From NCBI GenBank assembly GCA_946497925.1, contig CAMMMG010000002.1, forward strand, positions 398 to 64,397: a stretch of DNA of 64,000 nt. Direction: 5' to 3'. A model generated the notes under the pieces. It saw only the letters and a program-made list of their open reading frames with translations, ran no database searches and had not been told where the DNA came from. This document shows positions 14,051 to 22,933 of this stretch, piece after piece; within the stretch, counting starts at the first letter, position 1; each line of letters begins with the position of its first letter. This DNA comes from an uncultured Mycoplasmatota bacterium. GTDB lineage: Bacteria > Bacillota_I > Bacilli_A > RF39 > UBA660. The position numbers were made by a program, and so were the translations under genes.

Positions 14051-16288
14051 TTAATAATAAAATATATTTAAATCAACATTACCAGTAATACCAGGGAGAC
14101 TACCAGAAGAAGTATATTGCCATCCTCTATGTGGTAAAGTATATCCACAATCTCCGTTAGTATAATGTGCTATCCAATCAACCATACTTCTTGTATTATC
14201 ATTAAATCTTGTCATTGCATAATTTAAATAAGTATAAACTTTAGCATCATAACCTGCTGCTTTAAGACGATTAATATAATTATAAACCATCCCTTCATAA
14301 GCTTCCTTAGATATATCATCAGAACTTTCATTTTGACTTGGAATACTATAACTCTCAATATCATAATAAATTGGATAATCTGGACTAACATTATATCTAT
14401 TAAGCATTTGAATCGTAGCATTAGCTTCAAAAATAGCTTCAGCAGGATTATGAGCATAACTATATAAATAAACACCATAAGGAATATTTAAACGTTTTAC
14501 ATTACTTAAATATTCAGAAAATTTTATATCTTCATAACCATTATAACCAATTCTTAAAATAACTCCATCAATTTCTCCAGAATTCCACAAAGTATCCCAA
14601 TCAATATTTCCTTGATGATAAGATACATCTGCTAATCTTTTAAAGTTCTGTTCACGTAAAACTCCATCCTGATTAAAGCGATACCAAACACCATGAATTT
14701 TTTGAACTCCAGTTGCCATACTACCATCATAATTGTAATAATATGTATTACCATTTATAGTTTGAAAACCAGTTTGAATAACACCGTTTTCATCAAATTT
14801 ATAAACACGACCATCAATTGTCTGAATACCTGTTTGAATGATACCTTCTTGATTAGTATAATATATATATCCTGTTAATGAATGTACCCAACCAATTTGA
14901 ATTTTTCCAGAAAGCTCACCTAAAAAATATCTTTGACCATCTATTGACGTAATACCTTTCAATATTTTTCCATCTTGATCAGTATAGTAACGATCTCCCG
15001 TTAAGGCAGAGGTTACAAAGCCTACTTGAACTTTTCCTGTATACTCTCCTAAGAAGTAATCTTCCCCATCTATTTCTGTAATTCCATATTGCTTTACACC
15101 CAAAATATAATAATAACGATCTAATCCTATATCATAAAATCCTTCAATTAAACTTCCATCTTCTAAAGTATTATAAGTATTACCGTCATATTCAAATTCA
15201 CCTTTATAAATTTTTCCATCTTCATCTGCATAATAATACTTATTATTTAAACTTGATTGAACAAATCCAGTCTGAATTTTTCCTGTATACTCTCCTAAAA
15301 AGTAATCTTCTCCATCTATCGGAGTAATACCTTTCAATATTTTTCCATCTTGATCAGTATAGTAACGATCTCCCGTTAAGGCAGAGGTTACAAAGCCTAC
15401 TTGAACTTTTCCTGTATACTCTCCTAAGAAGTAATCTTCCCCATCTATTTCTGTAATTCCATATTGCTTTACACCCAAAATATAATAATAACGATCTAAT
15501 CCTATATCATAAAATCCTTCAATTAAACTTCCATCTTCTAAAGTATTATAAGTATTACCGTCATATTCAAATTCACCTTTATAAATTTTTCCATCTTCAT
15601 CTGCATAATAATACTTATTATTTAAACTTGATTGAACAAATCCAGTCTGAATTTTTCCTGTATACTCTCCTAAAAAGTAATCTTCTCCATCTATTGGCGT
15701 AATACCTTTCAATATTTTTCCATCTTGATCAGTATAATACCTATCTCCCGTTAATGAAGAAGTTACAAAACCTACTTGAACTTTTCCTGTATACTCTCCT
15801 AAGAAATAATCTTCTCCATCTATTTCTGTAATACCTTTAACTAATTTACCATCAGAATCAAAATAATAAGTCGCTCCATCGATAAAGACAAATCCCTTTT
15901 GTATTATTCCATCCTGATTAGTATAATACACATCTCCTGTTAATGAAGAAGTTACAAAACCTATTTGAACTTTTCCTGTATATTCCCCTAAAAAGTAATC
16001 TTCTCCATCTATTGATGTAATACCTTTCAATATTTTTCCATCCTGATTAGTATAATACATGTCTCCTGTTAATGAAGAAGTTACAAAACCTATTTGAACT
16101 TTTCCTGTATACTCTCCTAAGAAATAATCTTCTCCATCTATTTCTGTAATACCTTTTTGTATTATTCCGTCCTTATAATAATAAAGTGAACCATCTTCTT
16201 CAAAAAAACCAGTTTTACCTAAAGCATTAACATTTAAAAACACCAAACTAATTGCAACTAAAACAACAAAAAATATCTTTTTTTTCAT
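14051..16288 (-). CDS. Secreted GH25 muramidase with N-terminal cell-wall-binding (CW_binding_1 type) repeats
   Basis: It has a signal peptide (MKKKIFFVVLVAISLVF) and ~20-aa G-x-x-x-IDG-x-x-YF repeats. The C-terminal DVSYHQGNIDWDTL...GVILRIGY is a GH25 signature. Confidence 0.8.
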   Translation of the reverse strand: MKKKIFFVVLVAISLVFLNVNALGKTGFFEEDGSLYYYKDGIIQKGITEIDGEDYFLGEYTGKVQIGFVTSSLTGDMYYTNQDGKILKGITSIDGEDYFLGEYTGKVQIGFVTSSLTGDVYYTNQDGIIQKGFVFIDGATYYFDSDGKLVKGITEIDGEDYFLGEYTGKVQVGFVTSSLTGDRYYTDQDGKILKGITPIDGEDYFLGEYTGKIQTGFVQSSLNNKYYYADEDGKIYKGEFEYDGNTYNTLEDGSLIEGFYDIGLDRYYYILGVKQYGITEIDGEDYFLGEYTGKVQVGFVTSALTGDRYYTDQDGKILKGITPIDGEDYFLGEYTGKIQTGFVQSSLNNKYYYADEDGKIYKGEFEYDGNTYNTLEDGSLIEGFYDIGLDRYYYILGVKQYGITEIDGEDYFLGEYTGKVQVGFVTSALTGDRYYTDQDGKILKGITSIDGQRYFLGELSGKIQIGWVHSLTGYIYYTNQEGIIQTGIQTIDGRVYKFDENGVIQTGFQTINGNTYYYNYDGSMATGVQKIHGVWYRFNQDGVLREQNFKRLADVSYHQGNIDWDTLWNSGEIDGVILRIGYNGYEDIKFSEYLSNVKRLNIPYGVYLYSYAHNPAEAIFEANATIQMLNRYNVSPDYPIYYDIESYSIPSQNESSDDISKEAYEGMVYNYINRLKAAGYDAKVYTYLNYAMTRFNDNTRSMVDWIAHYTNGDCGYTLPHRGWQYTSSGSLPGITGNVDLNIFYY
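14949..15698 (-). repeat. Near-perfect 2 x 375-bp tandem duplication inside the lysin gene
   Basis: The same string (gtaatacctttcaatatttttccatcttgatcagtatagtaacgatctcccgttaaggcagagg...) starts at 14949 and 15324. A diverged third copy starts ~15699. The period equals 125 aa. Confidence 0.85.
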
Positions 16289-20790: not shown

Positions 20791-21612
20791 CTAGTCTAAA
20801 TATTTCTTTATTTCTTCAGTAATCACTTCATATCCCCTACTATTAGGATGTAGTCCATCATCAGTATATTCTTCATTAAAATTACCATCATCATCAAGTA
20901 ATTTATCATACATATTAATATAAGTATAACCATTATCATCACAATATTTTTTTATTTCCTCATTTATCTCCATAATATCATCATTATTTCTAACATCAAC
21001 CATATCTTCATCTAAATTATCATTAACAGGATAAACACTTTCAACATAAATTTCAGACTGTGGTTCATTACTATTAATTTCATTAACTATTTTTTCAATA
21101 TTAGAGACAATATCATCTACACTGATATCATGAATTAAATCATTAGTACCTATTAATAAAAATACTTTAGATGGATTATAATTATAAACTCTATTTTTCA
21201 TATCATTTAAGATATCTTCAGTCGTATTACCTGAAATACCACTATTCACAACAGGCAATCCTTCATAATATTTATCTAAATCATAAAAATCAGTAATAGA
21301 ATCTCCTAAAAATAAATAATTAGTGTAATCATCTTCTAATCTTTCCATTTCACCATTTTTATCTTCAATAGTATTATTTAAGTCATCTACAGATAAACTT
21401 AAATTATTAATTTTCAACAAAAAAAATGCATTAAAAAAAATACTAATTATTAAAATAATCAAAACTAATTTATTGTTATTACTCTTCTTATCTGTATATG
21501 TAGATGAATCATTTTTATAATAAATTCTTTTATTTTTTTCAAGTCTAGTAGTATATTTTTTCTTTTTTGATTTTTTATTTGTAGTTTTACTCATAATACT
21601 TCCCCTTTTCAT
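20791..21612 (-). CDS. Membrane-anchored SGNH/GDSL hydrolase
   Basis: It has an N-terminal TM helix, FLGDSITD (block I), NSGISGNTT (block II) and DDGLHPN (block V). Confidence 0.75.
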   Translation of the reverse strand: MKRGSIMSKTTNKKSKKKKYTTRLEKNKRIYYKNDSSTYTDKKSNNNKLVLIILIISIFFNAFFLLKINNLSLSVDDLNNTIEDKNGEMERLEDDYTNYLFLGDSITDFYDLDKYYEGLPVVNSGISGNTTEDILNDMKNRVYNYNPSKVFLLIGTNDLIHDISVDDIVSNIEKIVNEINSNEPQSEIYVESVYPVNDNLDEDMVDVRNNDDIMEINEEIKKYCDDNGYTYINMYDKLLDDDGNFNEEYTDDGLHPNSRGYEVITEEIKKYLD

Positions 21613-21655
21613 ACCAATATGAGTATAACATAAATATTTGTACTTTTACATTGAA

Positions 21656-21685
21656 AGAAAAAAACTTGACATTATTTGCCAAGTT
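21656..21685 (-). terminator. Rho-independent terminator (copy B), 5' arm inside the toxN stop region
   Basis: The minus strand reads AACTTGGC-AAATAAT-GTCAAGTT followed by TTTTTTTCTTTC. The stem begins in the codons ..ELGK*. Confidence 0.65.
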
Positions 21686-22142
21686 CTTCAAGCATCATCT
21701 CTTTAATTTTATCAATATCAGGAAAAAACAAATTAACTCCTTGTTTCTTTAAAGATAATAAGTAATTAAAATTGCTAGTTATTTCATCTTTTAATGTATC
21801 TATTACTTTAAGTGGTTTACCATTTATTATATGGGGATGATCTATATATTTTTCTAATGTAGGAAAAGCATTTTGTAATAATATAACTGATTTTTTATTG
21901 GCAATTTCTCTTATCATTATAGAACGACAATCTCCATATTTTTTAACCTTTTTATCTATTATAGGTTGATATTTAGAAACTTTACTACTTAACGGAATAA
22001 ACCATAATATATCCTTGTCTTTAATTGTAAAGTAAGTAGGTCTAGCTCTTCCATTTTCATGATTTATCATTAAACCTTTATCATTAATCTTATCAAAGAA
22101 TTCATCTTTTATATGATAAATATATCCTGTTTGGACCTTGAT
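21672..22142 (-). CDS. Type III toxin-antitoxin toxin, ToxN/AbiQ-like endoribonuclease (start codon uncertain)
   Basis: ..GYIYHIKDEFFDKINDKGL...RARPTYFTIKDKDILWFIPLSSK.. resembles ToxN/AbiQ N-terminal regions. The frame is open up to 22192, but the first ATG is at 22070, inside the conserved region. An ATC at 22142 lies 8 nt after GGGGGGTG. Confidence 0.6.
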   Translation of the reverse strand: MKVQTGYIYHIKDEFFDKINDKGLMINHENGRARPTYFTIKDKDILWFIPLSSKVSKYQPIIDKKVKKYGDCRSIMIREIANKKSVILLQNAFPTLEKYIDHPHIINGKPLKVIDTLKDEITSNFNYLLSLKKQGVNLFFPDIDKIKEMMLEELGK

Positions 22143-22233
22143 TTTATAAGCACCCCCCCAATAAAAAATATAACTTGTAACTAAAATATATCAAATTATA
22201 ACTATGTTTGCAAGTACAAAAGTTTGATTTTTA

Positions 22234-22272
22234 GAAGAAAAAGAAAACTTTATTCAAAAGAACAAAGTTTTC
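22234..22272 (-). terminator. Terminator between antitoxin repeats and toxin gene
   Basis: The minus strand reads GAAAACTTT-GTTCTTTTGAAT-AAAGTTTTC followed by TTTTTCTTC. Confidence 0.65.
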
Positions 22273-22273
22273 A

Positions 22274-22378
22274 AACATTTTCGATCGGAATAATTTATAT
22301 CCCGCACCATCCGAGAGCGGTTAACATTTCACGATTGGAATAATTTATAACCCGCACCATCCAAGAGCGGCTAACATG
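22274..22378 (-). ncRNA. ToxI-like antitoxin RNA: two tandem 49/50-nt repeats (+ start of a third)
   Basis: The units start at 22274 and 22323, and a partial unit starts at 22373. Unit 1 is aacattttcgatcggaataatttatatcccgcaccatccgagagcggtt and unit 2 is aacatttcacgattggaataatttataacccgcaccatccaagagcggct. They are GC-richer than the surroundings and lie between a consensus promoter and a terminator upstream of the toxin. Confidence 0.6.
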
Positions 22379-22407
22379 TACATATTACATTTCTTAAATG
22401 CAATACT

Positions 22408-22436
22408 AATATACTATATTTTGACATATATGTCAA
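22408..22436 (-). promoter_or_regulatory. Sigma-A type promoter for the repeat-toxin operon
   Basis: The minus strand reads TTGACA-17 nt-TATATT. Confidence 0.6.
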
Positions 22437-22495
22437 TAAGTATACACTATTATTGTATGCAATTTCCCAAATATTTATAGAGATTTTTGGGATTA

Positions 22496-22933
22496 TTATT
22501 TACCAAGTCTATTTGTTTCTTTAAACAAACTTTCATCTATTGTTATATCTTTATTAGTACCAGTTACTTTATGTAGATAATAATTATATTTATCATTATC
22601 TATCATTTCATAACCATCATTATACAATTTTCTAAGCATATCATCTTCTTTAACAAACTGTTTATAGGTTAAATCAGCTAAATAGTAATTACTATTATCA
22701 ACTGGTACTAAAACAAATCTATGTTTATAAGAAAATCCTAAATCATTAGTATCAACTATATAAGCAAGACATGACATATCTTTTAGATTCTCATATAAAT
22801 AGCTACTGTATACTAAACACATTCTCTCATAATCAAGATTTGTTAAGTCACTTTTAGTTTTTTTAATCGCTTGTTTAATAATAGATTCTTTGTCTATATT
22901 AGCAATATTAAGCATTCTATCATATAAAGACAT
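22496..22933 (-). CDS. Hypothetical protein with Cys...His...Asp (transglutaminase/papain-like) motif
   Basis: It has MCLVYSSYLY, then KHRFVLVPVDNSNYYLADLTYKQF. The last block is shared with the 307-aa ORF at 51103-52026. Confidence 0.35.
   Translation of the reverse strand: MSLYDRMLNIANIDKESIIKQAIKKTKSDLTNLDYERMCLVYSSYLYENLKDMSCLAYIVDTNDLGFSYKHRFVLVPVDNSNYYLADLTYKQFVKEDDMLRKLYNDGYEMIDNDKYNYYLHKVTGTNKDITIDESLFKETNRLGK

Follow-up and report, generated by a model that had tools for sequence, protein, structure and literature searches.

Our analysis of a 64,000-nucleotide (nt) stretch of contig CAMMMG010000002.1 from an uncultured Mycoplasmatota bacterium, hereafter the window, revealed a type III toxin-antitoxin cassette, cptIN, whose toxin gene carries ATC where its relatives carry a start codon. 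We put at roughly 0.7 the probability that this locus is a chromosomal CptIN system of uncultured gut Bacilli, related to Candidatus Onthousia, in which the toxin start has mutated and the toxin is null or strongly hypomorphic. Read along the minus strand, the segment 21653-22436 holds, in order, a promoter, a leader, two RNA repeats and a partial third, an intrinsic terminator, a spacer, a Shine-Dalgarno (SD) sequence and the toxin frame. A first-pass annotation of this DNA had proposed a complete type III cassette of promoter, RNA repeats, terminator and toxin; we found all of these parts on the minus strand, and the coordinates it gave for promoter, repeats, terminator and frame were correct. 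The cassette is far beyond chance, and approximately 80 related loci share the layout.

The toxin frame is open from 22190 to a TAA at 21674-21672 and, taken from the ATC, comprises 156 codons plus the stop (21672..22142, minus strand), otherwise intact. Its product matches the NCBIfam CptIN equivalog NF047359 over the entire profile (positions 1-150 of 150; E = 1e-45, 155.3 bits against a cutoff of 90), as well as the sequence of CptN from Eubacterium rectale (PDB 4RMO_A; E = 2.1e-17). An AlphaFold model built with an alignment of 35 diverse relatives reached a pLDDT of 93.1 and, compared against the PDB with Foldseek, retrieved in order 4RMO_A (TM 0.84, E = 4e-13), AbiQ (4GLK, TM 0.71) and the MazF/CcdB fold. 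On the strength of the NCBIfam match and 4RMO, we assign the predicted toxin to the CptN family, and not to ToxN/AbiQ. The first-pass annotation had favored a ToxIN/AbiQ-like system on the basis of ToxN/AbiQ-like sequence blocks, an assignment that does not survive these comparisons: the CptIN model scores far over its cutoff, AbiQ is 17% identical to the window toxin, and scans of the 156-amino-acid (aa) product returned no family from Pfam-A at E <= 1 (hence no ToxN model) and none from PADLOC. A word-indexed search returned 2,637 homologues at E <= 0.001, the best 120 of which are 81-92% identical to the window protein, and an exhaustive search placed the wider CptN family in 990 clusters at 50% identity. 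Among the neighbors of the active site, pairwise alignment with E. rectale CptN shows SSK in the window for the Ser-Ser-Arg triad (SSR), N for D81 and H for Y104, with S85 kept; S52 is nearly invariant in the subfamily alignment.

That the toxin lacks a canonical start, as first annotated, was borne out. ATC occupies the family start-codon position (22140..22142), and the first ATG, GTG or TTG that the toxin frame contains is the ATG at 22070. To place this codon, we used 80 related genome loci, two with two copies each and three without a readable N-terminus, which left 79 readable starts; the codon aligned to the window ATC is ATG in 77 of them and GTG and TTG in one each, and is never ATC. 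The nearest relatives read ...GGGGG(G)TG(C/T)TTATAAA ATG AAGGT..., and the window differs by a G-to-C change at the third base of the start codon. Further, M1 is nearly invariant in the alignment of 35 diverse family members, which extends down to 30% identity, and the N-terminal block G6-Y-x-Y9-H-I-K-D-E-F-F is among its better conserved segments, with G6 and Y9 nearly invariant.

A sequencing or assembly error that disguises a true ATG, in the ATC, in the G7 tract that precedes it or in both, would be one explanation, given that the source is probably a metagenome-assembled genome and that homopolymer lengths are error-prone. However, the identical combination of ATC and G7 is present in three other contigs, under other sample accessions (L081, ERZ28615330; L082, ERR6747196; L083, ERZ27280452), one of which differs elsewhere, and G-to-C is a substitution, not a homopolymer slip. 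Over 1,450 nt, three mismatches and one gap separate L081 from the window. Since ATC and G7 recur together under other sample accessions, we consider error to have a nearly negligible probability and, from this recurrence, take the ATG>ATC point mutation to be real and lineage-specific. The toxin frames are identical in all four ATC assemblies, and the allele is therefore young. An exact-match scan of genome contigs for the ATC allele found none, and the allele was recovered through an exact match to the 132-aa product described below. A single metagenome scan, with a pattern degenerate for ATG and ATC, returned one contig with ATG and G5 (L084) and gave no allele-frequency information. This short contig (OMFK01011755.1, 209-760), which could be chimeric, carries a close copy of the toxin without a cptI array within 400 nt upstream; the upstream region holds a different promoter-like sequence, and the C-terminal part of the toxin is rearranged (139 aa).

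The 132-aa product begins at Met25, the ATG at 22070, and is the sole open reading frame (ORF) with a canonical start (21672..22070, minus strand). It is the version that gene callers annotate, and shorter cptN genes accompanied by full antitoxin arrays have been noted before (Blower 2012, PMC3401426), so that a shortened yet functional toxin might be envisaged. We regard this as very unlikely, as such a protein would be without residues 1-24, which include beta1 (7-11) and alpha1 (13-19) of the modelled core fold together with the nearly invariant G6 and Y9, and its ATG is preceded, 4 nt upstream, by only a weak AAGG. The 90% database cluster of the 132-aa product also holds many 186-aa elongation factor P-like proteins, evidently a clustering artefact that makes its 414 members uninformative.

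Immediately upstream of the toxin start lies the SD region GGGGGGGUG (22151..22159, minus strand), which reads GGGGGGGTG from 22159 to 22151, with the G7 at 22159-22153 and the ATC 8 nt downstream. In the relatives, the SD is a G5 or G6 tract plus TG, with identical spacing to an ATG; specifically, all four ATC contigs have a G7 tract, L001 and L002 have G6, and most of the remaining close relatives have G5. The tract forms the 5' part of the SD, within the 5' untranslated region (GGGGGUG against a consensus of GGAGGUG), and its 3' end keeps a constant distance to the start codon, with extra Gs extending away from the latter. Because these Gs are added on the start-distal side, neither the frame nor the SD-to-start spacing changes. 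This comparison across relatives, which spans G5 to G7, lent no support to homopolymer switching. Of the three possibilities raised in the first-pass annotation, namely a rare start, modulation by the homopolymer or inactivation, the data favor inactivation or a very weak start by way of a lineage-specific ATG>ATC mutation. We likewise rejected the tract as a phase-variation switch, given its position in the untranslated region and the ordinary ATG starts of the G5 and G6 relatives. A broader version of this idea, a ToxIN/AbiQ-family system that is either phase-varied by the tract or translated by frameshifting from the GTG within the SD, would accommodate the general type III layout and the homopolymer beside the start. 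It has scarcely any probability in our estimation, considering the family matches and the tract position given above. Further, the GTG (22153-22151) opens only a 14-codon, out-of-frame ORF and is kept unchanged in the ATG relatives. Initiation at this GTG with a -1 shift at AUAAAAU was rejected on the same grounds, as translation would stop after 14 codons and no slippery heptamer is present.

With the SD and the other 155 codons untouched, the change from ATG to ATC would most likely lower toxin synthesis by one or two orders of magnitude, if not further. Initiation from AUC in E. coli amounts to approximately 1-2% of the AUG level in one reporter and to 0.02-3% in other constructs, and the resulting protein begins with Met (Hecht et al., bioRxiv 10.1101/063800). 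When they follow an extended SD, the AUU and AUA starts of Staphylococcus lower the yield and reach up to ~30% of AUG in one case (PMC13009471). The effect in the window would therefore be expected to fall somewhere between null and strongly reduced.

In six of the 80 related loci, from species-level relatives, the toxin has been inactivated independently: by nonsense mutations in three (Q134 to stop in L003, a truncation shared by protein P0285; a stop at codon 73 in L048; and a stop at codon 64 in L070), by a frameshift near codon 141 in one (L016) and by 5' deletions that remove the start in two (L008 and L028). The cptI repeats persist upstream in all six, with two units in five of them and only one unit found in L048. 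Across the clade, these lesions argue that loss of the toxin is tolerated and recurrent. The asymmetry, with the toxin lost first, is expected for a toxin-antitoxin pair because losing the antitoxin first would be lethal. Given recurrent toxin lesions beside surviving cptI, the ATC allele is likely to represent attenuation of the toxin or the first step of its decay; the antitoxin RNA is presumably still made, which would fit an early stage of this toxin-first decay. If so, the locus would provide a clean natural example of chromosomal type III decay, in which the toxin is hit first while the antitoxin RNA, its promoter and its terminator persist.

The main rival to attenuation or decay is that ATC is a functional, selected weak start in an active CptIN system with a low toxin dose, for which the G7UG SD may compensate. 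Several observations are in keeping with it: the ORF is intact with an SD 8 nt upstream, G7 and ATC occur together in four of four assemblies while the ATG relatives have G5 or G6, and both the Met at the head of AUC-initiated proteins and the extended SDs of the non-canonical Staphylococcus starts have precedent in the work cited above. The G7 could, relative to G5UG, add two G-U pairs with the anti-SD. Nevertheless, we judge this rival unlikely. First, ATC is found in none of the 79 related starts and is absent from the wider family alignment, so it is not a conserved regulatory feature. Second, the allele is very young, as the identity of the four ORFs indicates. Third, the extra G lies on the start-distal side and would add wobble pairs only. 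Finally, the clade tolerates losing the toxin, as its other, independent toxin-killing lesions demonstrate.

Four points weigh against our preferred reading of a null or strongly hypomorphic toxin. The frame is intact behind a strong, long and ideally spaced SD, and ATC could still yield a biologically meaningful amount of toxin. The active-site residues agree only partly with those of E. rectale CptN; these states are common to the whole subfamily. Outside the start, the window differs from L001 by 8 synonymous changes and 1 non-synonymous change, a synonymous excess that reflects purifying selection and is assignable to neither branch. Finally, the identical ORFs of the four ATC assemblies leave no time for relaxed selection to have left its mark, and pseudogene status is not demonstrable from sequence.

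The antitoxin array lies upstream of the toxin. Tandem Repeats Finder (TRF) reported it at 22274-22381 with a period of 50, 2.2 copies and 86% matches. Within it, we delimited unit 1 of cptI (50 nt, 22329..22378, minus strand), with stem S1 at 22370-22367/22355-22352, stem S2 at 22364-22360/22339-22335 and the A-rich loop UUAUAAAUUA, and unit 2 (49 nt, 22280..22328), with S1 at 22320-22317/22305-22302 and S2 at 22314-22310/22289-22285. The unit boundaries, 22378/22329 and 22328/22280, were placed by analogy with E. rectale CptI (UUGA^AAGUUUACC) and are probable on that basis; both the junction between units, CGUGA^AAUGUUAACCGC, and the loop are similar to those of E. rectale CptI, GUUGA^AAGUUUACCAC...UAUAUAAAU. 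The CCGC...GCGG stem, the two 49/50-nt repeats and the start of a third had been recognized in the first-pass annotation; what escaped it was S2, which turns the unit into a pseudoknot. S2 pairs UUGGA with UCCAA in unit 1 and UCGGA with UCCGA in unit 2, a compensatory change from U-A to C-G inside the window itself. As the covariation indicates, S2 interleaves with the CCGC...GCGG S1, so that the unit takes the form of an H-type pseudoknot whose UAUAAAU loop is A-rich.

To weigh this structure across the clade, 100 distinct repeat units were extracted from related loci and aligned, and the pseudoknot pairs were counted. The cells of S1 and S2 are paired in 81% of cases, compared with 23-53% in slid registers, and double-sided changes number 168 against 55 +/- 13 in shuffles, with none of 500 shuffles reaching the observed value. 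Individual pairs switch: S1 pair 12-30 occurs as U-A in 50 units and as C-G in 49, and pairs of S2 alternate between C-G and U-A (56:41), A-U and G-C (75:25), and U-A and C-G (33:27). Two extra terminal pairs, 11-31 and 17-48, are mostly unpaired and were dropped, leaving a 4-base-pair (bp) S1 and a 5-bp S2. An Rfam search at E <= 10 returned chance matches only, with no curated family for the window cptI RNA.

Since the two units of an array have diverged in about half of the relatives, TRF overlooked these arrays, and motif-based extraction was used in its place. Exactly two units are present in 66 of 78 related arrays, and successive units are almost always 50 nt apart. The cptIN arrays tabulated by Blower 2012 (PMC3401426, Table 2) have repeats of 40-48 nt in 1.9-3.4 copies, all chromosomal, beside toxins that average 149 aa. 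A two-unit array is thus the norm for CptIN and not a minimal one, contrary to the earlier view that approximately two repeats were unusual. In E. rectale, two genetic 45-nt repeats are processed to single 45-nt pseudoknots, with cleavage after A45 that leaves a cyclic phosphate, and one repeat is enough for antitoxicity (Rao 2015, PMC4627078). In one related locus, L005, the array consists of one cptI unit, which resembles the 5' half of unit 1 fused to the 3' half of unit 2; its S2 is kept through a G-U pair and its toxin is intact, consistent with one repeat sufficing.

The array is preceded by a candidate promoter, P1 (TTGACA-17-TATATT; 22408..22436, minus strand), which matches the consensus at 11 of 12 positions, is the top-scoring promoter-like site of the region by that measure and lies in a block kept in relatives. 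A promoter upstream of the repeats is a preference, not a strict rule, in this class (Blower 2012, PMC3401426). Between P1 and the repeats, a leader of ~20 nt with a small predicted hairpin (22379..22401, approximate boundaries) runs up to UGUA^CAUGUU, presumed to be the first site of processing; in distant relatives, the leader hairpin is clearer, ATTGCA...TGCAAT. A 16-bp perfect palindrome, TTGACATATATGTCAA (22421-22436), overlaps the -35 of P1 and may be an operator or incidental. The same palindrome also gives a plus-strand promoter-like match, and its 7-bp arms are present in close relatives (TTGACATTTATGTCAA) and absent in distant ones.

Downstream of unit 2, the start of a third unit, AAUGUUUG (its first 8 nt), leads into the intrinsic terminator (22233..22279), whose hairpin appears in both the minimum free energy and the centroid structures. 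The terminator consists of a 13-bp stem with a 4-nt loop (22272..22243) followed by the U-run TTTTTCTTCT, is conserved in relatives and is the sole terminator-like site in 21400-22700, where shuffles yield 0.2. From here, a spacer of ~90 nt runs to the SD. At the other end of the toxin gene, structure prediction places a terminator-like hairpin over the stop codon, followed by a T-run (21653..21688), which forms the 3' boundary of the cassette; with so few G-C pairs, this hairpin went uncalled in the consensus terminator scan.

Taken together, these components suggest how the system would operate. P1 would transcribe the short leader and two ~50-nt cptI units and stop at the intrinsic terminator, and each unit would fold as an H-type pseudoknot with the stems and loop described above. 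If the system works like CptIN of E. rectale, the endoribonuclease CptN would cut the precursor at GA^AAUGUU junctions, and the processed units would then hold CptN inactive in a protein-RNA complex. The toxin gene lies past the terminator and, in this subfamily, is probably transcribed from its own extended -10 promoter, P2. Our analysis establishes the family membership, the anatomy, the covariation of the RNA and a real mutation specific to this lineage, whereas RNA processing, complex formation and P2 activity, like the effect of ATC on translation, are steps that we infer.

The prediction of P2 rests on conservation between the terminator and the SD. In the window, the motif is TTGCAA-17-TATATT with TG at -15/-14 (22185..22213, minus strand), identified by promoter scan. 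The pattern T(A/G)TGnTAnnnT, a Firmicute extended -10, occurs in this interval in 49 of 54 unique regions, whereas shuffles lead to an expectation of 18.5, and in ~46 of the 54 it sits at a conserved distance from the toxin start: 26-37 nt from the start codon in distant relatives and 49-51 nt in the clade of the window, where a TTGCAA -35 is positioned 17 nt upstream of the -10 hexamer. Bases on either side change freely, whereas the motif itself stays conserved. By comparison, the extended -10 is absent from ~20 unique E. rectale-type loci, where the terminator runs directly into the SD and ATG. Its conservation in the subfamily and its absence from E. rectale-type loci lead us to predict that the subfamily toxin has its own promoter. 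As usually described, a type III system is a bicistronic operon that has one promoter and whose terminator is leaky (review PMC5086642), and searching the literature for type III systems with an internal promoter for the toxin gave no relevant result. If the prediction is true, the antitoxin:toxin ratio would be set by two promoters instead of by terminator read-through. An extension of this idea, that the array and the toxin are separate transcription units whose ratio the two promoters set and that the window ATC behind its G7UG SD tunes the dose and is not dead, has a modest probability in our estimation. The E. rectale-type loci from Lachnospiraceae (L086-L113, 330-603) are extremely conserved, with TTGACT-17-TAGAAT, 2 x 45-nt repeats, a G+C-rich terminator and an immediate SD and ATG.

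CptIN is an already described and structurally solved family, and the window locus adds little that is new in kind; it suggests a variant of the regulation that can be tested, in which the toxin has a dedicated promoter past the terminator, in gut Bacilli that form a large, unstudied group. Its closest characterized counterpart is E. rectale CptIN (4RMO; Blower 2012, Rao 2015), which it resembles in toxin sequence (E = 2e-17), fold, length (~155 aa) and chromosomal location, in the succession of promoter, two tandem repeats, terminator and toxin, and in the H-type pseudoknot with its UAUAAAU-type A-rich loop and UGA^AA(G/U) junction. The two differ in that identity is ~30% over the structural alignment to 4RMO_A and that the repeats are 45 nt in E. 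rectale but 49/50 nt in the window, just over the 2012 range. The active-site neighbors differ as listed above and, in E. rectale, the SD and ATG follow the terminator directly, whereas the window subfamily has the P2 motif in between and the window itself starts with ATC.

More distant systems share the general principle. ToxIN of Pectobacterium atrosepticum likewise combines tandem RNA repeats, a terminator and an endoribonuclease toxin that processes its own pseudoknot inhibitor, but its toxin is from another family, its repeats are 36 nt x 5.5, its complex is heterohexameric and not heterotetrameric, and it is plasmid-borne with abortive infection demonstrated. The cptIN loci that have been tested gave no phage resistance in E. 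coli (Blower 2012, PMC3401426). AbiQ/antiQ of Lactococcus lactis is also a Firmicute type III system and supplied the second-best structural match, but it is a member of the ToxIN family with the low identity given above. TenpIN is alike in having few (~2) and long (39-57 nt) repeats and has a different toxin family, from which the window toxin was set apart by its CptIN equivalog match and not by comparison with a TenpN profile.

The comparative set, with its ~100 distinct units and matching toxin variants, allowed us to examine not only pseudoknot covariation but also co-variation of toxin and antitoxin. Toxin residues 105-116, directly after the position aligned with the RNA-contacting Y104 of E. 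rectale CptN, fall into two main types, ...NGKPLKVID... and ...NG(A/V)Px(R/K)V(A/P/S)D.... The former occurs with the antitoxin loop AAAU-U-A in 16 unique combinations (plus 4 with A) and the latter with AAAU-G-A in 25, with one or two exceptions per side. Toxin type thus appears to track antitoxin type across the aligned loci, an association that shared ancestry inflates; it agrees with the cognate specificity reported by Rao 2015 (PMC4627078). The only exception on the KP side is L083 (k141_483), which joins the window-type ATC toxin to an L009-type array, a type that usually goes with another toxin variant: it is identical to the window from ~22233 downward, including toxin, ATC and G7, and ~10% diverged upstream. 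Either the assembly of this 1.4-kb contig is chimeric, or the contig represents a recombinant made viable by a silent toxin.

The genomic setting is that of an old resident. The nearest assemblies are labelled uncultured Bacilli, "Tenericutes" or Candidatus Onthousia (Bacilli incertae sedis). The cassette is flanked upstream by ppdK and a 145-aa ORF and downstream by genes for a GDSL-type lipase, a GtrA-like protein and a glycosyltransferase. The position downstream of ppdK recurs in many species, down to ~63% PPDK identity, which argues for long chromosomal residence, and the cassette is not visibly part of a mobile element. A tblastn search with the toxin found no second cptIN copy in the window; weak matches at 14933-15655 (E 0.5-0.7) fall inside a repeat-rich 745-aa ORF, look like chance and were set aside. 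That ORF (14051-16288, minus strand) has an apparent signal-peptide-like N-terminus and many tandem repeats of ~60 aa (GITEIDGEDYFLGEYTGKVQ...). The 145-aa ORF between ppdK and the cassette (22496-22933, minus strand), without a recorded Pfam match, is not found beside cptIN in distant loci; in close relatives, it travels with ppdK at 66-85% identity.

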